Below are positions 22,077 to 60,424 of a stretch of DNA of 64,000 nucleotides, piece after piece. The position numbers were made by a program, and so were the translations under genes. The first letter of the stretch is position 1. Every line of letters begins with the position of its first letter. Below the pieces are notes generated by a model. That model searched no databases, was not told the DNA's origin, and saw nothing but the letters and a program-made list of their open reading frames with translations. Source of the stretch: a virus. The DNA lies in the UHGV virus genome UHGV-0332176; one strand, written 5' to 3'.

Positions 22077-23330
22077 ATGAAAACTTATTTAGTTGGTGGA
22101 GCAGTTAGAGATAAATTACTTGGAAAAGAACCACACGATAAAGATTATGTTGTAGTGGGTTCAACTATTGAAGAAATGCTATCACTTGGTTTTACACAAG
22201 TTGGTAAAGATTTTCCTGTATTCCTTCATCCTAAAACAGGGGAAGAATATGCTCTTGCTCGTACTGAACGTAAAACAGGTAGTAAACATACTGATTTTTC
22301 ATTTGAATTTTCTTCTAATATAACTCTTGAAGAAGATTTAATAAGACGTGATTTTACAATTAATGCAATGGCAATGAATATGGAAACAGGTGAAATCATT
22401 GATTATTTTAATGGAAAACAAGATTTAGAAAATAAAATCCTGCGTGCAGTAAGACCTGAAACTTTTATTGAAGACCCTCTTAGAGTATTGCGTGGATGTC
22501 GTTTTGCTGCTCAATTAGATTTTTCTATTGCTCCTGAAACAATGGAATTATTTAAACAAATGGTTTTAGATGGTATGCTAGAACATTTAACTGCAGAAAG
22601 AGTTTGGAAAGAAACTGAAAAAGCATTAGCAATAGTTTATCAATCTGAAAAATATTTTGAAAATTTAAGAAAATGTGGAGCATTAAAACTTTTAATGCCT
22701 GAAGTTAATAGATTATTTGATACTCCCGAACAACTTAAATATCATCCATCGGGAAATTCAGGTAAACATACAATGATTGCATTAACACGAGTTCAAAATG
22801 AAAATTCTTTAACAAAATTCATTGTATTATGTCACGATTTTGGTAAAGGTGTCACACCTGCTGATATTTTGCCAAAACATAGTGGACACGATGAAAGAGG
22901 GTTAGCTGAAATTGATGCTTTTTGTGATAGATTAAAAGTTCCTAATAATTATCGTGAAAATGCAAAAACATTTTGTAAAAATCATATGCGTATGGCTCGT
23001 TTTCCTGAAATGAATGTTAAAAAGCAATATGATATGATTAAAGAACTTTCTAATAATTTTAAAAATATTGAAACTTTACAAATGTTTATTGAAGGTTTTT
23101 ATGCTGATTGGACAGGTGAAAATGAACAAACAGCGTGGAATGATACAAAAGAAGCTGATGATATTACATATGTAATGAAAAAAATTTTTAATATTATGTA
23201 TGGTATTACTTTAAAAGATTTACCAGAAAAAACACAAGAAGATTTAAGTAAACAAAAAGGTGAAAAATTTGGTAAACTTTATCGTGATGCAATGATAAGT
23301 TATTTAAAATTTAATTTGAAAAATTCTTAA
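22077..23330 (+). CDS. cca: tRNA nucleotidyltransferase (CCA-adding enzyme) with an HD domain
   Basis: The N-terminal YLVGGAVRDKLLGKEPHDKDYVVVGS is the class II nucleotidyltransferase head motif. A downstream HD-like motif is present (LCHDFGKG). At 417 aa it is similar to bacterial CCA enzymes. Confidence 0.75.
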   Translation: MKTYLVGGAVRDKLLGKEPHDKDYVVVGSTIEEMLSLGFTQVGKDFPVFLHPKTGEEYALARTERKTGSKHTDFSFEFSSNITLEEDLIRRDFTINAMAMNMETGEIIDYFNGKQDLENKILRAVRPETFIEDPLRVLRGCRFAAQLDFSIAPETMELFKQMVLDGMLEHLTAERVWKETEKALAIVYQSEKYFENLRKCGALKLLMPEVNRLFDTPEQLKYHPSGNSGKHTMIALTRVQNENSLTKFIVLCHDFGKGVTPADILPKHSGHDERGLAEIDAFCDRLKVPNNYRENAKTFCKNHMRMARFPEMNVKKQYDMIKELSNNFKNIETLQMFIEGFYADWTGENEQTAWNDTKEADDITYVMKKIFNIMYGITLKDLPEKTQEDLSKQKGEKFGKLYRDAMISYLKFNLKNS

Positions 23331-31237: not shown

Positions 31238-32056
31238 ATGCAAAAAATATATTTGTTTGTAAAAAAAGGATATTATTATAATTTATCATCTGGTCAAACA
31301 GGAGAAACACGTATGTTTAATGTTCCAATGTATAATACAGATTTTAAATTATGGAAAGGTATTGATAATAAAATACAATTTTCTATTCGTGACCACGACC
31401 GTAAAGCATATCCTTTAAGAGATAGAGAAATCTTTTTAAATATTATAAATCCAAAATTAAACACTAAATTAGTTAAAAAATTATGGTGTTTAGATGCATA
31501 TAAAGGTTTATATGAAACGACAATAACGGAAGTTGAATTAAGAGATTTTGAACCAACTGCATATCAAGCATCAGTAATTACTAAAGACCCAGAAGGGTGT
31601 GAAGATATGTTATATACTGGTGTTGATTGGAATCCAATATTTAATATTATTGTTGAAGAAGGATTTAGAGATGTTTTTAAACCATCTATTGAATTAGACC
31701 CTTCAAAATTTTTACATAATTTTTATATCAATAGAGAAGACGGACAACGTTATGACTATTATGTTTCTTCAAGAATTAAAGCTGATGAAACAAATTCTCA
31801 TACAGCATCTATAACTGTTAAGGATTATTTTTTAGGAACAATAACTATGGAAGGTTCAGCTGAAGTTAATCCACAAGAAAATAGTGATATAGATTGGTTT
31901 CCAATAGAAACAAAAGAATATACTGATGAAACAAAAGTTGAAGCTGAAACATTTCAATTTAATAAACAATTAAATTGTATGTGGGTACGTTTTAAATATA
32001 CTATTAAATCAGCAAATTATAAGGGTATAGTTTCTGAAATTTTTTATAGAAATTAG
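31238..32056 (+). CDS. hypothetical late protein
   Basis: 272 aa. The stop overlaps the convergent gene 32053..32532. Confidence 0.5.
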   Translation: MQKIYLFVKKGYYYNLSSGQTGETRMFNVPMYNTDFKLWKGIDNKIQFSIRDHDRKAYPLRDREIFLNIINPKLNTKLVKKLWCLDAYKGLYETTITEVELRDFEPTAYQASVITKDPEGCEDMLYTGVDWNPIFNIIVEEGFRDVFKPSIELDPSKFLHNFYINREDGQRYDYYVSSRIKADETNSHTASITVKDYFLGTITMEGSAEVNPQENSDIDWFPIETKEYTDETKVEAETFQFNKQLNCMWVRFKYTIKSANYKGIVSEIFYRN

Positions 32057-32532
32057 ATTTCATAAACAATAAATTGTGGAGATTGTGCATATATATTCTC
32101 TTCAGTAAATTGAATAATTCCATCACCTAAAACATATTTAACTTTAAAGGTATAAGTTCCACTTGGAATTATATCTAAATATTGTAATGAAAATGGATTA
32201 TTTGAAGAAGCTGATGGAGAAACACAAGTTTGCTGACATAATAATGAATCATCTCTATAAAAATATATTTTAAACCAAGATGTACTATTGTTATTAGAAT
32301 TGGCATCTCCACAAGTTGATAAAAAAATTGGTCTTCCTTTTGATGTTATAACAATTTCTTTGATAATTTCTGGATTTGAACTTGATAATGTTGAACCATT
32401 TTCTAATTTAATCATATTATAATTGCGATTAAATTTATCATTTACATTAATTATATTACTTGTTAAATTATTTAATGTTTCTGTTAATTCATTAATACGT
32501 GAAATAGGTAATTTACTTGTATCATTCATCAT
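32053..32532 (-). CDS. small late protein, paralog family A
   Basis: The N-terminal MMNDTSKLPISRINELTETLNNL is paralogous to 47601 and 28545. Confidence 0.6.
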   Translation of the reverse strand: MMNDTSKLPISRINELTETLNNLTSNIINVNDKFNRNYNMIKLENGSTLSSSNPEIIKEIVITSKGRPIFLSTCGDANSNNNSTSWFKIYFYRDDSLLCQQTCVSPSASSNNPFSLQYLDIIPSGTYTFKVKYVLGDGIIQFTEENIYAQSPQFIVYEI

Positions 32533-32540
32533 TTAACCCC

Positions 32541-32569
32541 TTTGTTTGTATTTAATAAATACAAACAAA
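32541..32569. promoter_or_regulatory. 29-bp perfect palindrome upstream of minus-strand gene 32053..32532
   Basis: tttgtttgtatttaataaatacaaacaaa, identical to 48059-48087. Confidence 0.55.
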
Positions 32570-32599
32570 TATTTTAGTTAAAAAATAATGGTATAAATA

Positions 32600-33917: not shown

Positions 33918-34622
33918 ATGAGAATATTAAAAAAACTTGGGTTTGTTGTTTTGTTTTTATGTATCTTTTCAACTCCATTGTTGTATTCATCATCGTATGC
34001 ACATACTTTTAATGGGTTACAGATGGAAAGTAATATTCAAACAAGTGACCTTCAAACTCAAAAGAAAAAAGAAATATTAGATATTCTTGAAAAAGAAAAT
34101 TTAATATTAACCGAAATAAAGGCGTTGAGGAAAGATAAGCAGGAAGATGTGGTGTGTCTTGCTTTGAATATGTACCACGAAAATAGGGGTTCCTCACTTG
34201 AAGACCGAATAGCATCAACATATGTTGTTTATAATAGGCAATATGATAAACCTTCTAAATCGTTATGTGATGTTATTTTTGAGAAATGGCAATTTTGTTG
34301 GACAAATAATACAAAAATTCCTGTTCCTAAAGAATTACAAGTATGGAATAAAATACAACAAGATGCTTATAAAATGTATTTAAATCCTAAGTTTAAAAAT
34401 TTGGCAAAAGAATTTCGTTTAAAACATTATGTTGCATCATATATGATACCAATGAAAAATAAGCCAAAATGGATTGATAAAAGATTATTTAAAATAGACA
34501 TTGGTAAACATTCTTATATATCATTGAATAAAGAAGATATGAAATATAAAGGTTCAATGATAAAAATTGTTCAACAAGGTAAACATTTATTAGAAAACAA
34601 AATATATATTAAAAAGAGATAA
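33918..34622 (+). CDS. secreted cell-wall hydrolase (SleB/Hydrolase_2 family)
   Basis: Signal peptide MRILKKLGFVVLFLCIFS. VVCLALNMYHENRGSSLEDRIASTYVVYNR matches the SleB-family motif (A..iY.EArgE....q.AVa.VvlNR). Confidence 0.55.
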   Translation: MRILKKLGFVVLFLCIFSTPLLYSSSYAHTFNGLQMESNIQTSDLQTQKKKEILDILEKENLILTEIKALRKDKQEDVVCLALNMYHENRGSSLEDRIASTYVVYNRQYDKPSKSLCDVIFEKWQFCWTNNTKIPVPKELQVWNKIQQDAYKMYLNPKFKNLAKEFRLKHYVASYMIPMKNKPKWIDKRLFKIDIGKHSYISLNKEDMKYKGSMIKIVQQGKHLLENKIYIKKR

Positions 34623-35040: not shown

Positions 35041-36219
35041 ATGGTAAAGTTATTCCAATACACAAATTATATAGATTATAATGAATTAATCAATAAACCA
35101 TTAATTAATAAAGTTGTTGTTGAAGGTGATAAATCATTAGCTGATTATGGTATTCAACCTGCTGGTAATTATGCTCATTTAAATGATAATGGAAAAGTAC
35201 CATTAGAAGAATTAGATGATTCTATTTTAGGTAATTTACAATTTCAAGATGTCTGGGATGCTAAAAATAATAATCCTCAATTACCATTAGTACCAACAAA
35301 AAAAGGTCAATATTGGATTGTTTCAACAGCAGGAGAACAATTTGGATTATCTTTTAATACGGGCGATTGGTTAGTTGCTGGTGATAGTGTATGGCAAAAA
35401 GTTGATAATTCAGATGCTGTTACTTCAGTTAATGGTAAAATTGGAAATGTTATTCTAACAGCTAATGATATTAATTATAATAATGAAACTGTTAGTGACG
35501 CTCTTGATTCTAAACAAAATCAATTAACAGCTGGTAAAAATATTAAAATTGAAAATAATATTATTTCTGCTGAATTTAATACAGCTATTATTGATTATAA
35601 TTTAACTTATAATAAACCATCAATTAATGGTGTTGAATTAATTAATAATAAAGCATTAGAAGATTTTGATATTCAAAGAACTATTAAAGCTGGAAATAAT
35701 GTTTATCTAACAAAATCTGAAACAGATAAAATGTTAGATACTATTAATGTATATGATGCAACTGAAACAAGAAAAGGTGTTTCTGAAATTGCAACTCAAG
35801 CAGAAGTAACAGCAGGAACAGATGATTTTAGATATATTACACCAAAAAAATTAAAAATTGTAACTGATGAAATTGATACAACTATACAAAATCAATATGA
35901 TACATTACATAGCGAAATAATTGAAGAATCACAAAGAGCAATTAGAGCAGAAAATTCTCTTTTATCTGAAATTCAATCAGAAGAACTAAGAGCATCAACA
36001 GCAGAAACTAATATTAATAATGATTTAACATCTCATAAAAATAATACAAATAACCCACATAATGTAACTGCTGAACAATTAAGTGTATATACAAAAACAG
36101 AAATTGATAATTTATTATCAACTATTAATACAAATTATCAAGAAATATTAAAAACAATTTCAGATTTAGATGCCCGTCTTACTAAAATGGAAACTAATAT
36201 TGATGGGGGCGGAGCTTAA
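35041..36219 (+). CDS. tail fibre protein with Phage_fiber_2-type repeats
   Basis: DYNELINKPLINKV.. is an N-terminal motif shared with 36866 and 38170. There is a coiled-coil-like C-terminus. Confidence 0.55.
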   Translation: MVKLFQYTNYIDYNELINKPLINKVVVEGDKSLADYGIQPAGNYAHLNDNGKVPLEELDDSILGNLQFQDVWDAKNNNPQLPLVPTKKGQYWIVSTAGEQFGLSFNTGDWLVAGDSVWQKVDNSDAVTSVNGKIGNVILTANDINYNNETVSDALDSKQNQLTAGKNIKIENNIISAEFNTAIIDYNLTYNKPSINGVELINNKALEDFDIQRTIKAGNNVYLTKSETDKMLDTINVYDATETRKGVSEIATQAEVTAGTDDFRYITPKKLKIVTDEIDTTIQNQYDTLHSEIIEESQRAIRAENSLLSEIQSEELRASTAETNINNDLTSHKNNTNNPHNVTAEQLSVYTKTEIDNLLSTINTNYQEILKTISDLDARLTKMETNIDGGGA

Positions 36220-36267
36220 CATTTAATAAATATTTTTATAAAATATATTTTATAAGGAAAAAGTAAA

Positions 36268-36855
36268 ATGATTCAAGGAACAAAAATTTATAGTGTATCT
36301 GTAGCTAATGCTGCTGGTTCTACAAATGAAGAAAAAGGATTTTTAGATAATAAAAAAGTATCTGATTATTCTGATTTTGATATTTCTACACAACCAGTTG
36401 AAGGTGAAACATTAGAACAATATAAAATTAAAGCTCGTGGATTGGTTAGATATAATCAAATGTGCTTAAATTTACAAAGAGGATTAGATTATTTAGGTGA
36501 AGTTGAAACAACTGGTGCAAATCATATTACTCCACCAACAAAATTAGAATTTAAAGTTGCTTATAGTCAACCAGATGGTTTATGTGTTCAAGTTGCTGAT
36601 TCTGATTATGAAGAAGATGAGGAAATTTTTAAAACACGAGATGGCAGAGTATTCTTTAAAGGAACAAAAGCAATTAAACGTTTAATTGCTATGGTATTAG
36701 TTGATGATTATACTGTTATTGCTAATTATTTTGATAATACTAAAACTCCATCAGGAAATCCATTAGGTTGGCAATTAAAAGAATTAGTAGTTAAAGGTCC
36801 AATTGCTGATTTAGAAACTGCTGAAGCATTAGTAACAGTAACTGAACTTTTATAA
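36268..36855 (+). CDS. hypothetical virion protein
   Basis: 195 aa. Confidence 0.5.
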   Translation: MIQGTKIYSVSVANAAGSTNEEKGFLDNKKVSDYSDFDISTQPVEGETLEQYKIKARGLVRYNQMCLNLQRGLDYLGEVETTGANHITPPTKLEFKVAYSQPDGLCVQVADSDYEEDEEIFKTRDGRVFFKGTKAIKRLIAMVLVDDYTVIANYFDNTKTPSGNPLGWQLKELVVKGPIADLETAEALVTVTELL

Positions 36856-36865
36856 GGAGTAAATA

Positions 36866-38152
36866 ATGGCTAATGAAAATGCAACTAAAATTCAATTAAG
36901 ACACGATTCATCTGCAAATTGGTTTGCTAATAATCCAATTTTAGCTGAAGGTGAAGTTGGTATTGAAATTGATAAAAATAGAATGAAAGTTGGTAATGGT
37001 GTAAGTCATTACAATGATTTAGAATATTTTTCTGATACTGTTGATTATAATGAATTAATTAATAAACCACAAATTAATAGTATCGGTTTGATGGGTAACT
37101 TATCTTTACACGAATTAGGTATTCAAGCAGAAGGCGATTATGCAACTGTATTAACTTTAACAGAAGGTTTATCAGAAAAAGCTGATAAAGCTGATACTTA
37201 TACTAAAACTGAAATTGATACTGAATTTTCTTCACTTATTAAAGTTCCAGCTATTGATGGACACGATGGAGAATGGTTAACTAATAAAGATGGAGTAGTT
37301 AAATGGGAAAATCTTGGTGATTCAGTTGTTACTAATGAAGAATTAACAACTGCATTAGAACCATATGCTTTAAAAACTAATATACCTACAAAAAATTCTC
37401 AATTAGAAAATGATTCTGACTTTGTAACTTTAACTGAATTAGCAGAATCTGATTATGTAACAAATACAAATTTAACAACTAAATTAGGTGAATATGTTAC
37501 TAATACTGCATTAGCTGAAGAAGGATATGCAAAAAATAGTGAATTAGCTCAAGTTGCAAAATCAGGTTCATATAATGATTTAACAAATAAACCAACTATT
37601 CCAACTGTTCCTGAAAATATTACAACTCAAGGAAATACTTTTAACGGAGCTAATCAATTAGTAAAATTAGAAGCTGATGGTAAATTACCAGCATTAGATG
37701 GAAGTAAATTAACTGGAATAAGTTCTGGAACATCTGATTATTCTGTATTATCTAATAAGCCACAAATTAATTCAGTTGAATTATCAGGTAATAAAACATT
37801 AGACCAATTAGGAATTCAAGCTAAAGGAGATTTTGCAGTTAAATCAACTACATTATCTGGATATGGTATTACAGATGCATATACAAAGACTGAATCTGAT
37901 AATAAATATGCAACTCAAACTTCTTTGAATTCTTATTTAACAACTGCATCAGCTTCTACAACTTATGCTACTAAAACAGAATTAGTAGATAAAGCTGATG
38001 TTGAAGATATTCCACAAGGAAATCAATTAATGGCTGGACAAGCTCCTACTGTTGCCGATATTAGTGCAGAAACAGTTACAGATATTCCAGGTTTAATTAG
38101 TGCAATTAATGCAATTTTAGCTCAATTAAGAACACGTAATGTTATTGAATAA
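36866..38152 (+). CDS. tail fibre protein (repeat-containing; paralog of 38170..38925)
   Basis: Repeats YTKTEIDTEF, LSEKADKADTYTKTE and SNKPQINSVELSGNKTLDQLGIQAKG. The C-terminus LAQLRTRNVIE is shared with 38170. Confidence 0.6.
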   Translation: MANENATKIQLRHDSSANWFANNPILAEGEVGIEIDKNRMKVGNGVSHYNDLEYFSDTVDYNELINKPQINSIGLMGNLSLHELGIQAEGDYATVLTLTEGLSEKADKADTYTKTEIDTEFSSLIKVPAIDGHDGEWLTNKDGVVKWENLGDSVVTNEELTTALEPYALKTNIPTKNSQLENDSDFVTLTELAESDYVTNTNLTTKLGEYVTNTALAEEGYAKNSELAQVAKSGSYNDLTNKPTIPTVPENITTQGNTFNGANQLVKLEADGKLPALDGSKLTGISSGTSDYSVLSNKPQINSVELSGNKTLDQLGIQAKGDFAVKSTTLSGYGITDAYTKTESDNKYATQTSLNSYLTTASASTTYATKTELVDKADVEDIPQGNQLMAGQAPTVADISAETVTDIPGLISAINAILAQLRTRNVIE

Positions 38153-38169
38153 ATTAAAGGAATAATTAT

Positions 38170-38925
38170 ATGACAGAAAGAATTGATATTAAATATGTAT
38201 TAAAAGATACAAAAGCAAATTGGACAAGTTTTAATCCAATTTTATCAAAAGGTATTATGGCTTATGAAACTGATACAAATTTAATTAAATTATTTGATGG
38301 TGTTTCTGATTATAATTCATTAGCATATATTGGTGGAACAGGTGGTTCATCTACACCAACTGATTATGCATCTTTATCTAATAAACCACAAATTAATTCA
38401 GTTGAATTATCAGGTAATAAAACATTAGACCAATTAGGAATTCAAGCTAAAGGTAATTATTTGGTTTCATCTGATTTAAATAATTATGCTTTGAAATCTG
38501 AATTACCTACAAATACAAGTGATTTAACAAATGATTCTGGATTTTTAACATCTATTCCTTCAGAATATGTTACTGAAACAGAATTAAATAGCAGTTTAGA
38601 AGATAAAGCTGATACTGCAACAACTTTATCTGGATATGGTATTACAGATGCATATACAAAAACTGAAGCTGATGGTAAATATGCAACAAAAACTGAATTA
38701 TCTAATAAAGCTGATACAAGTGCATTATCTAATTATGCAACTACATCTGCTTTAACAGAAGGATTAGCAGAAAAAGCCGATACAAGTGCATTACCTGCTT
38801 CAACTTCTTTAATGAATGGAACTGCTCCTTCTGTTGCTGATTTTGCAGGAGCTGATGCAGAAGGATTAAAAACAGAATTAAATGCATTTTTAGCCCAACT
38901 TAAAACTCGTGGTGTAATTGCATAA
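38170..38925 (+). CDS. tail fibre protein (paralog of 36866..38152)
   Basis: Shares a 77-bp near-identical DNA block (38377-38453 versus 37751-37827) and the C-terminus LAQLKTRGVIA. Confidence 0.6.
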   Translation: MTERIDIKYVLKDTKANWTSFNPILSKGIMAYETDTNLIKLFDGVSDYNSLAYIGGTGGSSTPTDYASLSNKPQINSVELSGNKTLDQLGIQAKGNYLVSSDLNNYALKSELPTNTSDLTNDSGFLTSIPSEYVTETELNSSLEDKADTATTLSGYGITDAYTKTEADGKYATKTELSNKADTSALSNYATTSALTEGLAEKADTSALPASTSLMNGTAPSVADFAGADAEGLKTELNAFLAQLKTRGVIA

Positions 38926-38946
38926 TAAAAATTTAAATTGTATAAA

Positions 38947-38984
38947 TAAAAACACTTATGTTATATTTCATAAGTGTTTTTTAT
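38947..38984 (+). terminator. rho-independent terminator
   Basis: aaaacacttatgttatatttcataagtgtttttt. Confidence 0.7.
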
Positions 38985-38997
38985 TGGAGAAAAATAA

Positions 38998-40257
38998 ATG
39001 AAAAAAATTAAATGGTCAGCTTTAATAACAATGATTGTTTCATTGTTAATTTCAATAGTTTCTGGATATTGTACAGTTGTAGGTATGGGAAATGTTTTTA
39101 TTTCAGCTGCATCAGTAACAATGTTTATTGCATCAGTTATTGAATTGGGTCGTGTTGTTTTAATTTATGATTTACACCATTATTGGGATAAAATGAAATT
39201 ATATCAAAAAATTCCTGGTGTCTGTATGTTATTAGTTGCCATTACTTTATCTGCAATGGGTATTTTTGGTTTTATGTCTAATGCTCATTCTCAACGAACC
39301 CAAGAAATTATTCCTATTGAAATGGAAATAAAACAAAAACAAACTGAAATTAAAATTTTAAATGATGCTATTTTAATTAATAATCAACAATTAAATCAAT
39401 TTAATAACAAAGCATTAGACAAATATACAGAAATGGGTTATGTAACAAAAGCTGTTAATTTACAAAAAGAACAGCAAAAAATTACAGATAAATTATATGA
39501 TGATAATAGACAAAAACAAAATGAAATTACAAAATTAAATCAAGAAATATTAAATTTACAATTAACGGCTGAACAAAAAGCTCCAACATTAGCCCATTTA
39601 AAATATTATGCAAAATTATTTAATGTTGATAATGATACAGCCATAATAATTTTTATTGTAATGATAATGACGGTATTTGATACATTAGCAATGTATTTAA
39701 TGATTACTTCTGATTGGATTTCAAAATTAGATGATGAAATTAAAATTATAAATAATAATCAAATAAATTATGATACAAATGAATTAAATAAAATTGAAAC
39801 AAAACTTAATCAACTCTTGGATATGAAGCCAATAGAAAAAATTAATAATAATCAAGATATTGATTTTTCACCTGTTTTTAATGCAATAAAGCAAGATTCA
39901 GATTATCAAATTGATTCATTAAAAAAGGTTGTAAATGAAAATAGTAAAATAACTATTAATAAATTAAATGAAGAATTTATTAAATTACAAAATAATTTAA
40001 AAGATAATACACTTATTGATAAATTGACAACAATTGAAGAAAATTTAAAAGAAGTTCAAAATAAATCTAATAAAATTGAAGTTAATAATATTGACGAACA
40101 ACTTGATAATTTGATAAACTCCATTAATGATAATGATAGTATCATTGGAACAAACTCATTTAAAAAATATATTTTAGATAATCCGTTAGTATTAGATTAT
40201 TTAAAAGATTATTTTAAAAATGATAAAAAAGTATTAACAAAATTAAATAAATTATAA
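38998..40257 (+). CDS. membrane protein with a long coiled-coil region
   Basis: Multiple N-terminal TM helices, then a Q/N/K-rich coiled coil. Confidence 0.5.
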   Translation: MKKIKWSALITMIVSLLISIVSGYCTVVGMGNVFISAASVTMFIASVIELGRVVLIYDLHHYWDKMKLYQKIPGVCMLLVAITLSAMGIFGFMSNAHSQRTQEIIPIEMEIKQKQTEIKILNDAILINNQQLNQFNNKALDKYTEMGYVTKAVNLQKEQQKITDKLYDDNRQKQNEITKLNQEILNLQLTAEQKAPTLAHLKYYAKLFNVDNDTAIIIFIVMIMTVFDTLAMYLMITSDWISKLDDEIKIINNNQINYDTNELNKIETKLNQLLDMKPIEKINNNQDIDFSPVFNAIKQDSDYQIDSLKKVVNENSKITINKLNEEFIKLQNNLKDNTLIDKLTTIEENLKEVQNKSNKIEVNNIDEQLDNLINSINDNDSIIGTNSFKKYILDNPLVLDYLKDYFKNDKKVLTKLNKL

Positions 40258-40270
40258 TTAGTGAGGGAAA

Positions 40271-40492
40271 ATGAAAACATATAATCCAAAAAAATCTGGA
40301 AATGTCATTTATGTTATAGATAATGATATTACAAAAGCATTAAATAGATTACGTCACGAAACTGCACCTTTATTAAAAGAATTAAAGATGAAAAGATTTT
40401 TTGAATCAAATTCTGAAAAGAAAAGACGTAAAAAGAAAGAAGCAATTGCTCGTGAAAAAATGAGACAACGAAAAGCTGAAATGTTTTTTTAA
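40271..40492 (+). CDS. rpsU: ribosomal protein bS21 homolog (phage-encoded)
   Basis: VIYVIDNDITKALNRLRHETAPLLKELKMKRFFESNSEKKRRKKKEAIAREKMRQRK follows the S21 pattern (V.V..NE....ALRRFKR.....G.L.E.RRR.YEKPS..RKRK...A). Confidence 0.6.
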   Translation: MKTYNPKKSGNVIYVIDNDITKALNRLRHETAPLLKELKMKRFFESNSEKKRRKKKEAIAREKMRQRKAEMFF

Positions 40493-40494
40493 TA

Positions 40495-40536
40495 TGAAAA
40501 AATGATTCTTTTAAAAAGAATCATTTTTTATTTTTG
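40495..40536 (+). terminator. rho-independent terminator
   Basis: gaaaaaatgattctttttaaaaagaatcatttttt. Confidence 0.7.
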
Positions 40537-40714
40537 CATACCTCTTAATGTTTGTGATATTATTCAAATATCAAGAAAATCCTTGATAAATACGTATTGT
40601 GGGGATTTAGAAAAGCTAATAGAATTTTTACAGACAAGCATTTAGAAAAGCTAATAGAATTTTTTTAGAAACGCACAATAGACAAGCAAATAGACAAGCA
40701 TTTAGGAGAGAAAA

Positions 40715-41845
40715 ATGAATACAATTGAAGAATTAAGAAAAAAAATTAACGCTAAAGTTGCAAAAGCAGAATCTAATACATCAACTCTTGGTGGTACAAT
40801 TTTCCCATTTAATACATTAAAAGCAGGTGATACCGTAACCATTCGTTTTATTAATGATGGTGAAGATAATGATGTGTTTTGGCGTGAACGTAGAACAAGA
40901 ACATTTGAATTTCCATCAGTAAAGCAAGCTAATGGTCAAGTAATATATAATAGATGTTTCGTAGATGTTCCAGCATTTAATTTAAAATATGATGAAGTAA
41001 TTTATAGTGATTTACCAGAAGATTATCTATATAAATCTGAAGATGATGTTATTCAAAAAAGAATTAAAGGATTTTGGGGTGAAACTGATGAAGAAAAAGC
41101 ATTATATTATAAATTTGCTAGAAGAAAATCTTATGTATTTCAAGGTTTTATAAGAAGTGGATATGAAAATAATAAAGCATTAGAACCAAATAAACTTTAT
41201 CGTTTTTATATTGGCGAAGATTTATTTAATGCTATTAAGACTTTCTTAAATCCACAAATGGGTATTAATTGTATGCCAACTGACCCTGAAAACGGTTTAG
41301 ATTTTATTTTATCAGTTACAAGTAAAAAATCTGGTAATAAAGAGTTTAAAGATTATTCAATTTCTCAATGGGCAAGAGCAAATTCTTCATTAACTAATGA
41401 TGAAAAAACTGCATTAGAAATTAATAAACCATTTGTATTAAAGAATTTTATTTTTAAAAGACCAACTGCTGAAGAAGAAAATGTTATGATGGAAATGTTT
41501 GAAGCATCATATAATTCTGAACCTTATGATGTTGTAAAATGGAGTAAATTTTTTAAACCAAATAATGTATTTTTTGATGCAGATGGTAATATTAAAGATT
41601 TAAAATCAAATACTAATGCTACTACTCAAGCAAGAGAAATACCTACAAGTCAAGTACAACAATTTGTTCAAGAAACTGTTAGTACAACAGTTCAACAACC
41701 TATTGTTCAACAAACTGTTGTTCAGCAACCAACTATGACTGCTCCACAAATTATTTCTCAACATACTGAAGCAGTAAGTGGTGAAAATCCAAAAGATGTT
41801 ATTAATAGTATTTTAGGAAAATATAATATTCAAACAAATAACTAA
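40715..41845 (+). CDS. gp32: single-stranded DNA-binding protein, T4 gp32-like
   Basis: TIFPFNTLKAGDTVTIRFIN, YRFYIGEDLFNAIKTFL and GINCMPTDPENGLDFILSVTSKKSGNKEFKDYSISQW align with the T4 gp32 core ([43 protein letters not shown]). Confidence 0.6.
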   Translation: MNTIEELRKKINAKVAKAESNTSTLGGTIFPFNTLKAGDTVTIRFINDGEDNDVFWRERRTRTFEFPSVKQANGQVIYNRCFVDVPAFNLKYDEVIYSDLPEDYLYKSEDDVIQKRIKGFWGETDEEKALYYKFARRKSYVFQGFIRSGYENNKALEPNKLYRFYIGEDLFNAIKTFLNPQMGINCMPTDPENGLDFILSVTSKKSGNKEFKDYSISQWARANSSLTNDEKTALEINKPFVLKNFIFKRPTAEEENVMMEMFEASYNSEPYDVVKWSKFFKPNNVFFDADGNIKDLKSNTNATTQAREIPTSQVQQFVQETVSTTVQQPIVQQTVVQQPTMTAPQIISQHTEAVSGENPKDVINSILGKYNIQTNN

Positions 41846-41931: not shown

Positions 41932-43017
41932 ATGAGACCAATTGATATTAGTAAATTTCAAAAAAGTGCATTAAAAAATGTTGATGGTATTTCAGCAGGT
42001 TTTAGTAATCCAGATACTTGGATACATACAGGAAACTATGCTTTAAATTTTAGAGTTTCTGGTGATTTTTATAAAGGATTTCCGCTTGAAGGTAAAATGA
42101 CATTATTAGCTGGTGATTCTGGAACAGGTAAATCATATATTGCTATTGGTAATATTGCTAAATGGTGTCAAGATAATAATGTATTACCTTTAATTATAGA
42201 TACAGAAAATGCTTTAGATAGAGATTGGGTTGAAGCATTTAATTTTGACCCAGATGGATATTGTTTATATTATCGTGCATCTATTTTAGATAAAATTGCA
42301 GGTATTATGTCTGATTTTATTGAAGGATATAAAAAAGAATATTCAGATATGCCATATAATGAAAGACCTAAAGTTCTAATTATTATTGATTCATTAGGTA
42401 TGGCAATTACACCAACTGAACAAAAGCAATTTGAAGATGGAGATATGAAAGGCGATTTAGGTCGTAAACAAAAACAAATCTATTCAATTTGTCGTAATTT
42501 TATGGCTTCTTGTGGAGCAGAACCAATTGGTATGTTATGTACTCAACATACTTATGCATCACAAGATTTATTTAATCCTGATGCTGTTATTGCAGGTGGT
42601 AAAGGTCTTGAGTTCACACCATCTATTGTTATAGCAATGTCAAAAAATAAATTAAAAGAAGATGAAGATGGTAAAAAAACTACTGATGTTAAAGGTATTA
42701 AAGTAAGAGCGACTGTTAGAAAAACAAGATATACACAACCATTTCAAGATGTAAAATTTAATATCCCTTGGGATAGTGGTATGGACCCATATTCAGGATT
42801 ATTTGAATTATTTGCTGAACAATTAATGTTTAAAGGAAAATATATTCTTTCAAAAGAAGGTTCTTGGGTTGCATATTATTCACTACATACAGGTGAACAA
42901 ATTTTCAAAAAATATCGTAAAGATATTACCAATGAAGATTATGATATGATTATGAAAGATTATGTAAATGCCACTTCTTCAACTTTATTAGTTACAGAAG
43001 AAGGTAATAAAGAATAA
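41932..43017 (+). CDS. uvsX: RecA-like recombinase UvsX
   Basis: Walker A GDSGTGKSY. IIDSLGMAITP, CTQHTYASQ, AGGKGLEFTPSIV and GMDPYSGLFEL match T4 UvsX (IDSLGNLAS, INHTYET, GGGTGPMYSADTV, GIDPYSGLLD). Confidence 0.8.
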   Translation: MRPIDISKFQKSALKNVDGISAGFSNPDTWIHTGNYALNFRVSGDFYKGFPLEGKMTLLAGDSGTGKSYIAIGNIAKWCQDNNVLPLIIDTENALDRDWVEAFNFDPDGYCLYYRASILDKIAGIMSDFIEGYKKEYSDMPYNERPKVLIIIDSLGMAITPTEQKQFEDGDMKGDLGRKQKQIYSICRNFMASCGAEPIGMLCTQHTYASQDLFNPDAVIAGGKGLEFTPSIVIAMSKNKLKEDEDGKKTTDVKGIKVRATVRKTRYTQPFQDVKFNIPWDSGMDPYSGLFELFAEQLMFKGKYILSKEGSWVAYYSLHTGEQIFKKYRKDITNEDYDMIMKDYVNATSSTLLVTEEGNKE

Positions 43018-47575: not shown

Positions 47576-47604
47576 AAAAGAGAGGATTAATCCTCTCTTT
47601 TTAA
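47574..47604. terminator. bidirectional hairpin terminator
   Basis: aaaaagagaggattaatcctctcttttt, between convergent genes. Confidence 0.75.
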
Positions 47605-48050
47605 TATCCACAAGCATACCAGTTAGCCATTTGGATTGATTCATTATAAGTGCTATTAATATACCAACGAATTTTAACACTATCATTTTTAAATGAATAA
47701 AATCCCATCATTGCTGTACATAAACCATTACCTTCATTATCTCTATCTGTTCTAAAAGGTGTAGCAAATATTTGATAATTGACATTTGAAAAATTAATTA
47801 AAAAATTAATATTAGCTCCACCTAAATCTTTAATAAATGAACCATAATTATATACTCCGCCTTGTTCAATCCATCCATCATTCCATTTACGATACCATTG
47901 AGTATTATTTTCATTAGAACCAGATTCAATAACATATTTCATTGAATCTAATTTATTATTAATAATATTAAAATTGTTATTAATTTCATTTAATTTATCA
48001 ATTAATTTATCAACACGTGAAATAGGTAATTTACTTGTATCTGCCATCAT
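47601..48050 (-). CDS. small late protein, paralog family A
   Basis: MMADTSKLPISRVDKLIDKLNEI...WYRKWNDGWIEQGG. Paralogous to 28545 and 32053. Confidence 0.6.
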   Translation of the reverse strand: MMADTSKLPISRVDKLIDKLNEINNNFNIINNKLDSMKYVIESGSNENNTQWYRKWNDGWIEQGGVYNYGSFIKDLGGANINFLINFSNVNYQIFATPFRTDRDNEGNGLCTAMMGFYSFKNDSVKIRWYINSTYNESIQMANWYACGY

Positions 48051-48058
48051 TTATCCCC

Positions 48059-48087
48059 TTTGTTTGTATTTAATAAATACAAACAAA
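48059..48087. promoter_or_regulatory. 29-bp perfect palindrome in the divergent intergenic region upstream of 47601..48050
   Basis: tttgtttgtatttaataaatacaaacaaa, identical to 32541-32569. Confidence 0.55.
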
Positions 48088-48144
48088 CTTTATAAAGCAA
48101 ATCCAAAGGAATAAATATTATTATATTAATAGGAGAATATAATA

Positions 48145-53311: not shown

Positions 53312-53320
53312 ATTTTTCTC

Positions 53321-53348
53321 TTGACAAGTAATTTTTCTATGTTATATT
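53321..53348 (+). promoter_or_regulatory. sigma70-type early promoter duplicated with its leader (compare 1356)
   Basis: ctcTTGACAagtaatttttctatgtTATATT, then a leader with the taacctt..aaggtta hairpin. Confidence 0.6.
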
Positions 53349-53384
53349 AACCTTATTAGAAACAAACAATGAAAGGTTAAAACA

Positions 53385-55382: not shown

Positions 55383-55469
55383 GGGCAGGCTGCGAAGTTG
55401 GAGAGTCGCCTTTGACTGTAAATCAAATCCCTTCGGGGTGAGTGTGTTCGAATCACACCCTGCCCACCA
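55383..55469 (+). tRNA. tRNA-Tyr (anticodon GTA), type II with a long variable arm
   Basis: Acceptor gggcagg/cctgccc, D arm gcga..tcgc, anticodon stem tttga/tcaaa with loop ctGTAaa, variable hairpin, T arm gtgtg ttcgaat cacac, ends ACCA. Confidence 0.8.
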
Positions 55470-55602
55470 TTTAAAATATATTATTTAATTAGTTAATTTG
55501 ATGAAATATATATTTAGTTAATATATAAAATAATCTATGAAAGAAGTGAAAATTCTTTCATATTATTTAACTAATAAACTTTAACTAATTAAATAATATA
55601 TT

Positions 55603-55679
55603 GGACATATAGCTCAGTCCAGTAGAGCACCAGACTGAAAATCTGGGTGTCGGTGGAGCGAAGCCACCTGTGTCCACCA
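55603..55679 (+). tRNA. tRNA-Phe (GAA)
   Basis: Acceptor ggacata/tgtgtcc (one G-U pair), anticodon stem ccaga/tctgg with loop ctGAAaa. The T loop is unusual (agcgaag). Ends CCA. Confidence 0.65.
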
Positions 55680-55820
55680 ATTTTAAAAATATGGAACTCA
55701 TAAAAGTAATATTATTAGTATGCTATTAGCGATATAGACGAAAGTGAAAATAATATGAAATGAACGGAGTTTAAATTCCATAGACTATATTCGAAAAGAT
55801 AGGTATAGTCATTTATAAAT

Positions 55821-55897
55821 GGGCCAGTAGTTCAGCTGGGAGAACGCCTGCTTTGCACGCAGGATGTCGTGGGTTCAAGCCCCACCTGTGTCCACCA
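55821..55897 (+). tRNA. tRNA-Ala (TGC), possibly defective (acceptor stem mismatched)
   Basis: The body matches tRNA-Ala (gttcagctgggagaac, cctgc tttgcac gcagg, gtggg ttcaagc cccac). The 3' strand ctgtgtcc does not pair with the 5' strand gggccag (ctggccc would be expected). The last 21 nt are identical to the 3' end of the tRNA-Phe gene. Confidence 0.45.
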
Positions 55898-55904
55898 ATT
55901 TTAT

Positions 55905-55980
55905 TCCTCGTTAGCTCAATGGTTAGAGCAATCGGCTGTTAACCGATAGGTTTGGGGTTCGAGTCCCTAACGGGGAGCCA
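55905..55980 (+). tRNA. tRNA-Asn (GTT)
   Basis: Acceptor tcctcgt/acgggga, D arm gctc aatggtta gagc, anticodon stem atcgg/ccgat with loop ctGTTaa, T arm tgggg ttcgagt cccta, ends GCCA. Confidence 0.8.
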
Positions 55981-56301
55981 CTTTTTAATAAAAGTTTTGT
56001 ATGAAAACTAGTGAGTAATACAAAAAGTTTAACCCAACTGTACTTCAACAGGGTTCTTACAGAAGAAATAATCTGTCGTAGGATAGAAAATGTCTATGTT
56101 ATGGAAGTGTACACCAAAGTTTTGGCGTTTGAGTGGTAGTTACCAAATAAAACTATAAACTACCATATTTACAGTTTTTAGCTTAACATTATGTTAAGTA
56201 TTACAGAAAAAGTCTTTTGGGTCTCTACCAAAAGCGTTGAACTGGACGGCTATGGGCAGATGGTTCTTATGTAGAATACGATAAATTCTACAATTTTATA
56301 T

Positions 56302-56380
56302 CGGGTAGTCGCCTAATCTGGTATGGCACTTGCTTTGGGAGCAAGAAAAATTGGCGGTTCAAATCCGTCCTACCCGACCA
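56302..56380 (+). tRNA. tRNA-Pro (TGG)
   Basis: Acceptor cgggtag/ctacccg, anticodon stem cttgc/gcaag with loop ttTGGga, T arm ggcgg ttcaaat ccgtc, ends ACCA. Confidence 0.75.
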
Positions 56381-56429
56381 TATATTTAATAAATACTTGT
56401 ATAAATAACAAGTTAAGGATTATTAAGTC

Positions 56430-57011
56430 GTGATTAATAGATTTGAAAAGATAGAAAATGAAAAATTTATAGAAATATTTAATACTTCTGAAAGTAAAGG
56501 TGAAATTTGTCGTAAATTAAATATGCATAATAATGGTAAATCTATGAAATATATTAATGCAATGATTAAAGAACTTGGTTTGAATATAAATATTTTTAAA
56601 GAAAATCATTTCAATAAATATCATATAAAAAAGATTTGCCCTGTATGTGGTAAAGAATTTATTACAACAACAACGGAAAAAGGTAAGAATAAGGTATGTT
56701 GCTCATATTCGTGTGCTAATACTTATTTTCGTAGTGGTGAAAATAATGGAATGTATAAAAATTCTAATCTTTCAGGAAGAAATTCTTATTCAACTATTTG
56801 TTTTAGACATCATCCTCATAAGTGTTGTATATGTGGCGAAGAAAATATAGTTGCTGTTCATCATTATGATGGTAATCATAATAATAATGATATAAGTAAT
56901 TTAATTCCTTTATGTCCAACACATCATTGTTATATACATTCACGATTCAAAAATAAAATACAAGATAAAGTTGATGAATATAGAAATAATTTTATAAAAT
57001 CAAATAGTTAA
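56430..57011 (+). CDS. HNH homing endonuclease with an N-terminal zinc-finger DNA-binding module (GTG start)
   Basis: CPVCGKEF..CCSYSCANTY (zinc finger, homologous to the N-terminus of 59708) and CCICGEENIVAVHHYDGNHNNNDISNLIPLCPTHHCYIH (HNH motif). It lies inside the tRNA cluster. Confidence 0.65.
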   Translation: MINRFEKIENEKFIEIFNTSESKGEICRKLNMHNNGKSMKYINAMIKELGLNINIFKENHFNKYHIKKICPVCGKEFITTTTEKGKNKVCCSYSCANTYFRSGENNGMYKNSNLSGRNSYSTICFRHHPHKCCICGEENIVAVHHYDGNHNNNDISNLIPLCPTHHCYIHSRFKNKIQDKVDEYRNNFIKSNS

Positions 57012-57285
57012 TAATTTTTCTAAATGGTGCTGAATTACCACAAGTACTTATTTCAGTTAAATGTAGTTGCAAAAAATATGGTCGCTCCATAAGAACTCAA
57101 GCCATTTAAACTTTGGGTTAATGCATACCAATAGTCCAAAGCATTCGAAGTCAGCCGCTTCGTAAAATAGGAGTATAGTTTTTTGAATATTTTGACTAGA
57201 CTATAAATATTCTCCATCTATGGAAGAAATAGTCGTGGATATTGACTAACCCGAAGTATTACGAGAAGATACTTCAAATTTTAAT

Positions 57286-57361
57286 GGTTCGGTGACAGAA
57301 CGATTAATGTACTCGCCTGCAAAGCGATGTTTAGTGGGTTTGACTCCCACCCGAATCTCCA
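57286..57361 (+). tRNA. possible tRNA-Cys (GCA) with a non-canonical D and T loop
   Basis: Acceptor ggttcgg/ccgaatc, anticodon loop ctGCAaa, T arm gtggg tttgact cccac, ends TCCA. It lacks the G18G19 and T54-psi55-C56 consensus, so it may be a pseudo-tRNA. Confidence 0.3.
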
Positions 57362-57531
57362 ATTTATTTTTTAAGAATGGTGAGAAATTGATTTACATAG
57401 ACTGGAAATCCGTGTGTAGAAAGTTCGATTCTTTCCCCATCGACCATTTAACGGTGGGTAGCTCATTGGTAGAGCAACGTTAAATGATAATCAATTGTTA
57501 TGTTCCTTCTTAATTTTTTATAAAAAAGTTC

Positions 57532-57560
57532 TTGACATTAAAAAATTATGTGTTATATTA
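57532..57560 (+). promoter_or_regulatory. early promoter (aaaaaGTTCTTGACA family) driving 57606..57839
   Basis: aaaaagttcTTGACAttaaaaaattatgtgtTATATT. Confidence 0.55.
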
Positions 57561-57605
57561 CCATTATCAAATGATGATAACATTTTTTAATGAAAGAAAA
57601 ATAAA

Positions 57606-57839
57606 ATGGCAAATACAAATTCAAATTTAGAATTAGGTAAAATTGAAAACAAATGTGGATTTCATATTCATATGGTTCTTTTTGGTGTTAAAAGTGATAT
57701 TATTCGTTATGATATTACTCTTGAAGAAGCTAAAGATTTAATTAATAAAGCTAAAAAAGAATGCGAAAGAGCAGGAATGGAATTCCAATTAATTGAATTT
57801 GAGGAAGTCAAAGTTTCCGTAAAGAAACTTAAATTTTAA
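57606..57839 (+). CDS. hypothetical small protein (promoter-ORF-terminator cassette inside the tRNA cluster)
   Basis: 77 aa with its own promoter and a downstream hairpin (57854-57892). Confidence 0.5.
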   Translation: MANTNSNLELGKIENKCGFHIHMVLFGVKSDIIRYDITLEEAKDLINKAKKECERAGMEFQLIEFEEVKVSVKKLKF

Positions 57840-57853
57840 AAGTTTTGGTAGTT

Positions 57854-57892
57854 GGAAGTTAAGCTATTAGGGCAGGAGCAACTTAACTTCCA
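57854..57892 (+). terminator. hairpin (putative terminator)
   Basis: ggaagttaagc..gcaacttaacttcc. Confidence 0.45.
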
Positions 57893-58432
57893 TCTATTGA
57901 TACGAATCCTGATTTATTAATTACCTTCACGTGGTTCAGGATGTAAGTAAGAATTGCAGTTTATAACATAAGACAATTTCTGAAACTAAAAATTAATTTT
58001 TAAAATGATTTAATTGAATTATAGTAAATTAAATAAGTTGATTAAATACGTGAGCAATATAGAATCAACAATTGGTATAAAAGCAGATTATAACCGAACT
58101 ACTTAGGCTTACGGTAGACGTAGGGTATAACCACGATTAGGGCAATTTATTTTGAATCTTCATTATGAGTCCTCAACAAATATAATCGTTTTTAAAAAAT
58201 TCTGCATATTTAAATTTTTAAAATTATCTTTATGATGTCTTTCGTTCCTTTCATTGTTGTTACATAAAGATAATTTTGGAGAGATTAATCTCTCCACTTA
58301 TAGAAACATTAAAGATGTCAGTTCGAATCTGACCTGCCTGAATAAAAACTTTTAATATTAAATTGATATTAAAAGTCGGGTGGTAGTAATAACGGTAGAA
58401 TAGTAATGTTGCTATAAATGGAGAATTTTTAT

Positions 58433-58507
58433 GGGTGTATAAGTCAACGGTTAGACTAACAGCCTTTTAAGCTGTAGATGAGGGTTCGATTCCCTCTGCA
58501 CCTACCA
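58433..58507 (+). tRNA. tRNA-Lys (TTT)
   Basis: Acceptor gggtgta/tgcacct, D arm agtc aacggtta gact, anticodon stem acagc/gctgt with loop ctTTTaa, T arm gaggg ttcgatt ccctc, ends ACCA. Confidence 0.8.
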
Positions 58508-58535
58508 ATTTATATTATTGTAGTTAAATACTTTA

Positions 58536-58607
58536 ATGTATCGTCTAATGGCAAGACACCCTCTGTTCGTGTTGAGGGAAATATAGGTTCGAATCCTAAT
58601 AATCATT
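58536..58607 (+). ncRNA. tRNA-like element with a canonical T arm (ggttcgaatcc) but a 10-nt loop on the ccctc/gaggg stem and no CCA
   Basis: gtctaatggcaagac (D-arm-like), then ccctc tgttcgtgtt gaggg, then aataggttcgaatcctaat. It cannot be folded as a standard tRNA by eye. Confidence 0.2.
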
Positions 58608-58873
58608 AAAAATATATAAGAAAAATAACAAGTTTCTTTTTTGATAATTTGGTATTGGAAATTAATGCCCAATTATGACAAGTATTTAACAAAATTTCCT
58701 GACTCTAATCAAAGAATTAGTGATTGATAATTTAATAATTATCTGTGTGCGTGATATGACACCCTTTATCAACGCTTGCATACAAGACTGCATAAATCAA
58801 GATGGGTAGGTGGCTGTTTATCCGTTTCACCTTTCAAATGATAAACAAAACGTTAAAACGGATTGCATTTTAT

Positions 58874-58948
58874 TCTGGTGTAGCTCAATGGTGGAGCAAT
58901 CGGCTGTTAACCGAAAGGTTGTAGGTTCAAGTCCTATCGCCAGAGCCA
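58874..58948 (+). tRNA. tRNA-Asn (GTT), second copy
   Basis: Acceptor tctggtg/cgccaga, anticodon loop ctGTTaa, T arm gtagg ttcaagt cctat, ends GCCA. Confidence 0.8.
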
Positions 58949-59179
58949 ATTATAATAGTAATCATAATATTTAATTTAATAGGATTTTGGTAGCTAGATA
59001 ACCCAAGATATGAAAATTAATATTGATGATATGGTTTAAGATTTTGACCATTAACCGTAATGAAAATCCAGTTTATTTATTGTACTCGGTTAACAATAAC
59101 GTAGAATTGGTAATTCTTAGAAAGGTACGTTAAGCCTTTTATTAAATAAATATCTTATATAATTTATGAGGTATTAAAG

Positions 59180-59602
59180 ATGAGATTAATAGACATATTA
59201 GCATTATTTAAAGCTATTAAAAATACTGCTAAAAAATATCATTGGAAAACAACAGGTTCAACTTTTATGTCAGACCATTTATTATTTGATAGAATTTATG
59301 ATGATATTGATGATGACCAAGTTGATACAATTGTTGAACAATATTATATGGGTGTTGGAAGAAAAGATATTAATGATTTAGATAATTTAATTACATTATC
59401 TGCACAATATGAAGGTAAATCATTTTCTGCAACTTCTGAAAGTATAATTTTAATGTATCAAGAATTAGCAAGAATGATGAATACATTTTTAATTAATATT
59501 GAAAAATTAAATTTATTAAGAGGTATTAATTCTGAATTAGATAATCTTTCTTCAACTATTACACAATTATATGGTTTAGTAACTGCAAGATTATGTCAAT
59601 AA
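59180..59602 (+). CDS. Dps/ferritin-like protein
   Basis: ALFKAIKNTAKKYHWKTTGSTFMSDHLLFDRIYDDIDDDQVDTIVEQY matches the Dps signature (L..L....Y.KTHN.HWNV.G..F..LH..FEE.Y......D.iAERi). Confidence 0.4.
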   Translation: MRLIDILALFKAIKNTAKKYHWKTTGSTFMSDHLLFDRIYDDIDDDQVDTIVEQYYMGVGRKDINDLDNLITLSAQYEGKSFSATSESIILMYQELARMMNTFLINIEKLNLLRGINSELDNLSSTITQLYGLVTARLCQ

Positions 59603-59604
59603 TT

Positions 59605-60423: not shown

Positions 60424-60424
60424 T

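Follow-up and report, generated by a model that had tools for sequence, protein, structure and literature searches.

A diverged ribosomal protein bS21 encoded upstream of gp32 in a clade of AT-rich T4-like gut jumbo phages

The ribosomal protein bS21 binds the platform of the 30S subunit late and exchangeably, beside the 3′ end of 16S ribosomal RNA (rRNA). To our knowledge, it is also the commonest ribosomal protein of viruses, and its actual function has been established for no phage. Here we analyse a 73-codon bS21 gene on a stretch of 64,000 nucleotides (nt) of the virus genome UHGV-0332176 (the window), where it lies immediately upstream of genes for a gp32-like single-stranded-DNA-binding protein (SSB) and a UvsX/RecA-like recombinase.

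Phage-encoded bS21 as a class is already known. A sequence-only reading of the window had placed such genes mainly in pelagiphages and some Bacteroidetes phages, which proved too narrow: 1,310 bS21-encoding viral genomes and contigs have been reported, with 90% of viral bS21 being aquatic (Mizuno 2019, PMC6375957), and further cases are known from huge phages (Al-Shayeb 2020) and from phages of Proteobacteria, Bacteroidetes and Firmicutes hosts (Chen 2022, PMC9723584). The bS21 of Pelagibacter phage HTVC008M, the only phage version experimentally shown in ribosomes, is likewise carried by a T4-like myovirus; unlike the gut family described here, it is aquatic, 54% identical to the host protein and clearly host-derived (PMC6375957). 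Huge-phage rpS21 resembles the present case in occurring in phages of >200 kb, alongside tRNAs and tRNA-maturation genes, and in its proposed hijacking of initiation; it also carries basic/aromatic N-terminal extensions (PMC7162821). Its ‘KLY-like’ motifs (PMC7550191) have a counterpart in the conserved hydrophobic-aromatic C-terminus of the window protein, which reads [E/D]-[M/L/P]-[F/Y] rather than basic-Leu-Tyr, and for which, unlike for the huge-phage proteins, no host-like relative was found.

Freshwater Bacteroidetes phages share with the window a large myovirus-type genome, structural (late) gene neighbours of bS21, clade-wide retention and conserved clade-specific C-termini (PMC9723584). 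Their bS21 is, however, Flavobacteriia-like and encoded on the reverse strand in a capsid/terminase block, and their hosts do not use Shine-Dalgarno (SD) sequences (PMC9723584), whereas the window gene is forward, lies between tail-fibre/lysis genes and gp32, has no identifiable donor and belongs to an SD-heavy gut phage with sigma70-type promoters. We found no paper describing this gut-phage bS21 lineage. Five features set it apart from published phage bS21: its association with the gut, an SD-using phage, the lack of a host-like relative, a membrane-protein partner and an acidic-hydrophobic-aromatic C-terminus.

Identity, conservation and distribution of the phage bS21

The open reading frame (ORF) starts with ATG, and its product (MKTYNPKKSGNVIYVIDNDITKALNRLRHETAPLLKELKMKRFFESNSEKKRRKKKEAIAREKMRQRKAEMFF) is small and very basic (isoelectric point 10.45; 22 Lys+Arg vs. 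9 Asp+Glu). It matched Pfam family PF01165 (Ribosomal_S21) with 31.8 bits against a gathering cut-off of 27 (E = 1.2e-7; profile positions 2–53 of 55 covered), the NCBIfam equivalog TIGR00030 with 30.1 bits against a cut-off of 28.95, and phrog_21469, ‘ribosomal protein S21’ (E = 3.5e-6). With significant S21 matches in hand, the proposal of the sequence-only reading that a phage bS21 homologue sits immediately 5′ of gp32-UvsX was borne out. The block KRFFESNSEKKRRKKKEA and the basic tail it had quoted as hallmarks are both present; the suggested core V.V..N....AL.RL holds as a pattern, but its first position is Ile (I13.V15..N18....A23L24.R26L27). A profile built from the bS21 family alone retrieved 14 distinct PDB sequences, all 14 of them bS21, with spinach plastid bS21c scoring best (E = 2.9e-5); plastid bS21c (5x8p/6eri) is also the closest solved structure. 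Family members are already annotated as ‘ribosomal protein S21’ by JGI.

Like cellular bS21 (E. coli RpsU), the protein is short, highly basic and made up of a beta-strand and two subsequent helices, and it shares the conserved A-L-x-R-[FL] and K-R-x-[FY]-E...R-R-K blocks. Unlike its cellular counterparts, it bears an 11-residue N-terminal extension, 1- and 2-residue deletions around helix 1, and RLRH and FESNS in place of RFKR and YEKPS; identity to E. coli bS21 amounts to 33% over 51 columns. In the AlphaFold2 model (mean predicted local distance difference test score 82.6), the N-terminus is disordered and helices span residues 20–43 and 47–72.

Several observations weigh against this assignment. 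The hidden Markov model (HMM) scores exceed their thresholds by a few bits only, the canonical ALRRFKR and EFYEKPS motifs are recognisable but changed (ALNRLRH, RFFESNS and a 2-residue loop deletion), and the single sequence matched bacterial bS21 in solved ribosomes weakly (E = 0.2–0.9). A Foldseek search of the model against the PDB returned zero matches at E ≤ 0.001 (best E = 0.47). Among the 13 matches listed, at least eight were ribosome structures (seven mitoribosomal, six of them bS21m chains, and one from B. subtilis; template-modelling scores 0.34–0.43). As these matches are mostly ribosomal and none is significant, the fold evidence is at most consistent with bS21. Judged by the profile matches, the 73-codon gene is a genuine, strongly diverged homologue of bacterial ribosomal protein bS21.

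The gene evolves under purifying selection. Comparison with a 96%-identical relative gave synonymous and non-synonymous divergences (dS and dN) of 0.60 and 0.040, i.e. a dN/dS of 0.07, and among the pairs with unsaturated dS, dN/dS ranged from 0.06 to 0.51. In total, we collected 57 homologous bS21 clusters (63–99% identity); a 22-sequence alignment contains 19 invariant columns, with the rRNA-facing core (ALxRL, KELK.KR.FE and basic helix 2) being the most conserved part of the family. Both ends of the protein are conserved as well: a Y-[N/D]-P motif lies inside the basic N-terminal extension of 53 of 55 members, all 55 have an aromatic residue among the last three positions, and [E/D]-[M/L/P/Q]-[F/Y] fits 54 of them. 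The ribosome-binding site (RBS) is kept as (G/A)TGAGG or GAGAGG in six divergent lineages. It is hardly credible that the ORF arose by chance or is what remains of a captured host rpsU, decaying or without function: although HMM scores near the threshold would suit such a remnant, dN/dS is low, length, RBS and both termini are kept over about 57 clusters, and bS21 is present in every clade member examined, so that conservation effectively refutes this reading.

The carrier, present in many human-gut assemblies, is an uncultivated AT-rich T4-like gut jumbo phage of ~285–286 kb. Its phage origin follows from the tail-fibre, baseplate-hub, endolysin, gp32 and UvsX neighbours of bS21 and from the large size of the contigs. 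Indexed blocks of an assembly collection contain the identical bS21 protein 1,086 times; six of these places, in ENA assemblies, lie on contigs of 231–288 kb with the same gene order, and one record is named as a human gut metagenome. The clade already has a genome in IMG/VR, of 286,782 bp (IMGVR_UViG_3300045988_152025), whose bS21 is 96% identical to that of the window, and more divergent relatives occur in other assemblies, one apparently from pig gut. Among the genomes of GTDB, the sole bS21 match was CASEYV010000001.1 (283,511 bp; here locus L007, other related loci being likewise denoted by L numbers), filed as ‘uncultured bacterium ... bin.81’. With 73–85% nucleotide identity to the window in parts of the locus, it appears to belong to a phage of this clade whose genome was deposited as a bacterial bin.

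To follow the gene across the clade, we searched IMG/VR using an alignment of the adjacent gp32 and retrieved flanks of up to 2.5 kb for the resulting 46 loci. All nine loci with gp32 at least 37% identical to that of the window carried bS21 directly upstream on the same strand, 78–190 nt away, compared to none of the 37 loci with gp32 at most 33% identical, within the retrieved flanks. The isolated relatives 121Q and Vibrio phage 2.275.O possess SSB-UvsX but not bS21, and a tblastn search of the bS21 protein against 50,697 deposited phage genomes gave no match at E ≤ 1e-3; none of the isolated phages covered thus has this lineage, distant phage bS21 being beyond the reach of a 73-residue query. 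The simplest reading of the nine-versus-37 split is one old acquisition at the base of the clade, upstream of gp32, followed by vertical inheritance. We regard bS21 as a vertically inherited core gene of this clade of AT-rich T4-like jumbo phages from human and animal guts.

Transcription unit and the spacer to gp32

bS21 adjoins tail-fibre and endolysin genes and is preceded by a gene for a 419-residue protein, whose stop codon lies 13 nt before the bS21 start (Table 1). Orthologues of this partner (50–72% identity) lie directly 5′ of bS21 at eight related loci (L008, L009, L011, L021, L025, L026, L027 and L064), with a gap of 13–15 nt in most lineages, and the protein matched no Pfam or PHROG family. 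Insertion of bS21 at an ancestral partner-SSB junction was considered and rejected, the partner being unrelated to the protein before SSB in 121Q and 2.275.O (E > 1). The sequence-only reading had called for a check that bS21 has its own terminator and promoter. The terminator is there, whereas the merely 13 nt to the upstream stop codon leave bS21 without a promoter of its own; a sigma70 consensus scan around bS21 was uninformative (37 sites vs. 35.9 expected).

The partner gene itself is preceded by the octamer TATAAATA, the consensus of T4 late promoters. Nine of its 18 copies fall in the intergenic 6% of the sequence (1.1 expected; ~8-fold enrichment), and seven of these nine are followed after 13–57 nt by a start codon on the same strand; one of the seven precedes the virion/baseplate block at 7830. 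A hairpin that overlaps this octamer retains its stem in L008 and L011 despite changes on both arms; it probably terminates the tail-fibre genes and/or serves as a 5′ leader structure. Downstream of bS21, the terminator consists of an inverted repeat of 16 nt with 100% complementarity (40497–40529; free energy −13.1 kcal/mol, z = −5.5, equalled by none of 200 shuffled sequences), which a simple scan had missed because its stem has fewer than three G-C pairs. This arrangement of signals makes it probable that the membrane-protein gene and, distal to it, bS21 form a late two-gene unit and that gp32 starts a separate transcript. The link of bS21 to the recombination genes is one of conserved position rather than of a demonstrably shared transcript, as a terminator and a promoter-like element lie in between.

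With its gene closing the tail-fibre/lysis block downstream of a late-like promoter, bS21 might also travel inside the virion and enter the cell together with the DNA, so as to reprogramme ribosomes from the start of the next infection; its late synthesis would then serve packaging. This possibility was raised by Chen et al. 2022 (PMC9723584). We consider it quite unlikely for the present protein, which is small and very basic and has no recognisable targeting signal, even though packaging is compatible with a role in late translation and the two do not exclude each other.

The spacer between bS21 and gp32 has features of its own. An octamer within it, GATAAATA, occurs once in the window against 14.1 ± 3.4 copies expected, and was rejected as a general promoter of the phage on account of this single occurrence. 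As [G/T]ATAAATA, it is kept in the spacers of L007–L011, L021, L023, L024, L028 and L064; in the deep branches L028 and L064, TTGACA-N17 precedes it, so that it forms the −10 element of a promoter. The spacers of relatives (L007–L011, L021–L028 and L064) continue with a hairpin after the motif and then with 12–35-nt tandem repeats up to the gp32 RBS, and even near-identical strains differ in spacer length (35 nt shorter in L004, 12 nt longer in L005). Rfam detected only tRNAs in the whole window and no known RNA element near bS21 or in the spacer. In its layout, the spacer (40536–40714) is reminiscent of the autoregulatory leader of T4 gene 32.

Such a spacer invites the idea that the bS21 fold was exapted as an off-ribosome RNA-binding regulator, for instance of the gp32 leader, which could explain why the two genes strictly adjoin. 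Indeed, bS21 lies directly 5′ of gp32 clade-wide, down to 37% gp32 identity; the spacer holds tandem repeats and a hairpin besides its unique conserved motif; every cellular bS21 is far removed from the phage protein in sequence; and extraribosomal roles of bS21 are discussed in the literature (PMC12054373). We nevertheless regard this as unlikely: phage gene order can persist without a functional link, a strong terminator separates bS21 from gp32 in the lineage of the window, conservation is highest in the core that faces rRNA, and the sole phage bS21 tested does enter ribosomes.

Table 1. Coordinates and properties of the features around the bS21 gene in the window.
Feature	Position	Strand	Properties
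Endolysin	33918-34622		
Tail-fibre or tail-spike proteins	35041-38925		
TATAAATA, T4-late-promoter-like motif	38941..38948	+	57 nt before partner gene; candidate promoter of partner-bS21 unit
Hairpin and U-run	38945..38985	+	Between tail-fibre and partner genes; free energy -13.8; overlaps TATAAATA
Partner gene (419-residue protein)	38998..40257	+	N-terminal and central hydrophobic (transmembrane-like) segments; coiled-coil-like regions
RBS, SD-like GTGAGGG	40261..40267	+	Ends 3 nt 5′ of bS21 ATG
bS21 coding sequence	40271..40492	+	73 codons plus stop; basic, aromatic N-terminal extension MKTYNPKK; two predicted helices; C-terminal end E-M-F-F
Intrinsic terminator	40497..40535	+	Perfect 15-16-bp hairpin followed by UUUUUUAUUUUU; 4 nt past bS21 stop
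GATAAATA	40585..40592	+	Occurs once in the 64-kb window; candidate promoter or operator element for gp32
Direct repeats, tandem and dispersed	40597..40708	+	35-nt unit twice; AGACAAGCA three times; reach gp32 RBS; candidate gp32 mRNA leader
gp32-like SSB	40715..41845	+	phrog_1192, E 3.5e-23; 27% identity, E 2e-26, to 121Q gp6
UvsX/RecA-like recombinase	41932..43017	+	phrog_97, E 3.8e-48; Pfam RecA

Origin, host and genome context

According to the sequence-only reading, the gene would help place the host. This expectation did not hold up. In a profile search of 1.84 billion cluster representatives, only eight proteins reached E ≤ 1e-10, and 359 passed E ≤ 1e-3. Among the eight, the best-scoring with available context were likewise found in this phage setting. 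At about 44% identity, the nearest ‘outgroups’ (e.g. the proteins P0062 and P0063) resemble the phage-context bS21 of the deep branches L026, L028 and L064, and the most similar proteins outside the lineage in our alignment are metagenomic and 31–51% identical. Beyond the phage lineage, the next tier consists of taxonomically mixed generic bS21, while a cluster look-up of the nearest outgroups led to singletons on short contigs. This exhaustive search thus turned up no near cellular sequence or donor, derivation from a recognisable host bS21 was not found, and the GTDB match was the phage itself. As the lineage is isolated and no cellular donor is identifiable, bS21 does not place the host.

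Signals in the window are more informative. SD-like motifs 4–12 nt 5′ of the start were found for 59 of 75 genes (79%) vs. 57 of 1,401 internal ATGs (4.1%), and strong GGAG/GAGG motifs at 35% of starts vs. 0.9% of internal ATGs. Spacers contain more TTGACA-N16-18-TAnnnT promoters than expected (4 vs. 0.7), frequently with exactly 64 nt to the following ATG, and the TTGACA-N17-TATAAT sites among spacers are probably early promoters read by the host polymerase. Such sites lie at 1345–1419 and 53312–53384, and also at 16534, 21375, 43026, 44510 and 54281; the first two spacers are near-identical copies ahead of small genes (a DUF6876 gene at 1420–1788 in the former case). A Bacteroidota-type TTTG...TAnnTTTG promoter was absent from the spacers of the window, and its −7 box was not enriched (5 vs. 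5.6 expected). SD use together with sigma70-type promoters points to a host in which transcription is of the standard sigma70/sigmaA kind and translation starts depend on SD. On these signals, a Bacteroidota host is unlikely.

The same data bear on a more elaborate scenario, in which the host is a member of the Bacteroidota and the phage bS21, which would leave the anti-SD exposed, displaces a host bS21 that helps to hide it, yielding SD-responsive ribosomes that select phage mRNAs. The prevalence of SD-like motifs among the phage genes would fit, loss of bS21 allows F. johnsoniae ribosomes to initiate in an SD-dependent manner (PMC9976891), Bacteroides is known to be infected by gut jumbo phages that are AT-rich and T4-like (PMC12880540), and the family profile misses F. 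johnsoniae bS21 (7JIL chain z) at E ≤ 0.01. In the F. johnsoniae protein, Tyr54 stacks on A1534. Yet the enriched promoters are of the sigma70/sigmaA type and Bacteroidota-type ones are absent or not enriched, so the host polymerase should be standard, and such a host would normally use SD too; the absence of SD use that marks a Bacteroidota-type anti-SD-sequestering system was not seen here. We therefore judge this scenario very unlikely. Mentions of ‘S21’ in the Jug-phage paper turned out to be figure and table numbers rather than the protein.

The window as a whole has a GC content of 25.8%, with 75 of 85 called ORFs on the + strand, and also encodes a baseplate-hub/lysozyme and a virion structural protein. 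UvsX is 46–49% identical to its counterparts in Rak2/121Q-like, Vibrio and Agrobacterium jumbo phages. For the endolysin, isolated phages offer only weak relatives (about 30% identity, in phages of Proteobacteria), which do not settle the host.

An array of 19 tRNA genes called by ARAGORN, plus one detected by Rfam only (57286–57358), spans 55383–63069, and a PolyA_pol-family nucleotidyltransferase of the CCA-adding type is encoded at 22077–23330. Both accord with a phage whose investment in translation goes further than bS21. A ClpA/B/C-type double AAA+ ATPase (AAA, AAA_lid_9, AAA_2 and ClpB_D2-small domains; phrog_4871, E = 3e-198) occupies 4975–7263. Clp proteases often neighbour phage bS21 (Chen 2022, PMC9723584), and it has been speculated that a phage-encoded protease might remove host bS21 (McNutt 2023).

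Two Mtd_N-type tail-fibre genes (36866–38925; about 2596–4655 in L001–L006) contain internal 77–98-nt repeats of 90–94% identity. The second of them differs among otherwise 99%-identical strains, being absent from L003 and encoding 229 instead of 251 residues in L005 and L006, which suggests cassette-like variation of receptor-binding proteins. On the opposite strand, genes for 159- and 149-residue proteins (32053–32599 and 47601–48144), one with a weak gp53-like C-terminal match, share near-identical upstream sequence with the hairpin-forming TTTGTTTGTATTTAATAAATACAAACAAA (AATACAAACAAAGGGG in gene orientation); they resemble a duplicated cassette whose insertion runs counter to the prevailing direction of transcription.

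Proposed role and significance

We consider it fairly likely that the phage bS21 replaces or supplements host bS21 late in infection and thereby biases initiation towards SD-led phage mRNAs. The protein would be made from the second gene of a two-gene transcript, together with the conserved membrane protein, driven by the T4-late-like TATAAATA promoter beside the tail-fibre and lysis genes. From the type of promoter and this location we infer expression late in infection, when the phage protein would take the place of host bS21 on the 30S platform. Its basic/aromatic YNPK N-terminus and acidic-hydrophobic-aromatic C-terminus might then alter mRNA selection or the dynamics of the 30S head, so that SD-led phage mRNAs would be preferentially initiated during mass production of virion proteins. 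In E. coli, the C-terminal helix of bS21 lies beside the SD helix, and its last residues, R-L-Y, touch h37 and A1167 in the head (PMC7550191). Co-expression of phage bS21 and late structural genes has been described (PMC9723584), and the HTVC008M protein enters E. coli ribosomes (PMC6375957).

Further points speak against this proposal. Ribosomes containing HTVC008M bS21 were nearly inactive in vitro (PMC6375957), and for this reason ‘helps translation’ is unestablished for any phage bS21. The late-promoter assignment of TATAAATA leans on a motif borrowed from T4, the promoter function itself being inferred. Finally, a terminator directly past bS21 occurs only in the close lineage of the window (and in L021), but not in more divergent lineages.

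A broader and more speculative version, to which we give only a small chance, sees an ancient bS21 lineage found only in phage context (about 44–100% identity, no detectable donor) that has co-evolved with one prevalent gut jumbo-phage clade. Its conserved ends would create a ‘phage-specialised’ 30S subunit preferring SD-led late mRNAs, in the extreme form by unmasking a hidden anti-SD, and the always adjacent membrane protein and the gp32 leader could belong to the same regulatory module.

In practical terms, phages carrying bS21 can be systematically discarded or misfiled by contamination filters, as illustrated by the 283.5-kb bin above and by a 2026 jumbo-phage catalogue that discarded contigs annotated ‘ribosomal protein’ as contamination (PMC13037316). 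While most described cases of phage bS21 are aquatic or linked to Bacteroidota, here it belongs to the core genes of a jumbo phage prevalent in the human gut. With its SD use and sigma70-type promoters, this phage offers a setting in which the idea of ‘specialised ribosomes’ may be tested, e.g. with SD reporters and gut metatranscriptomes.

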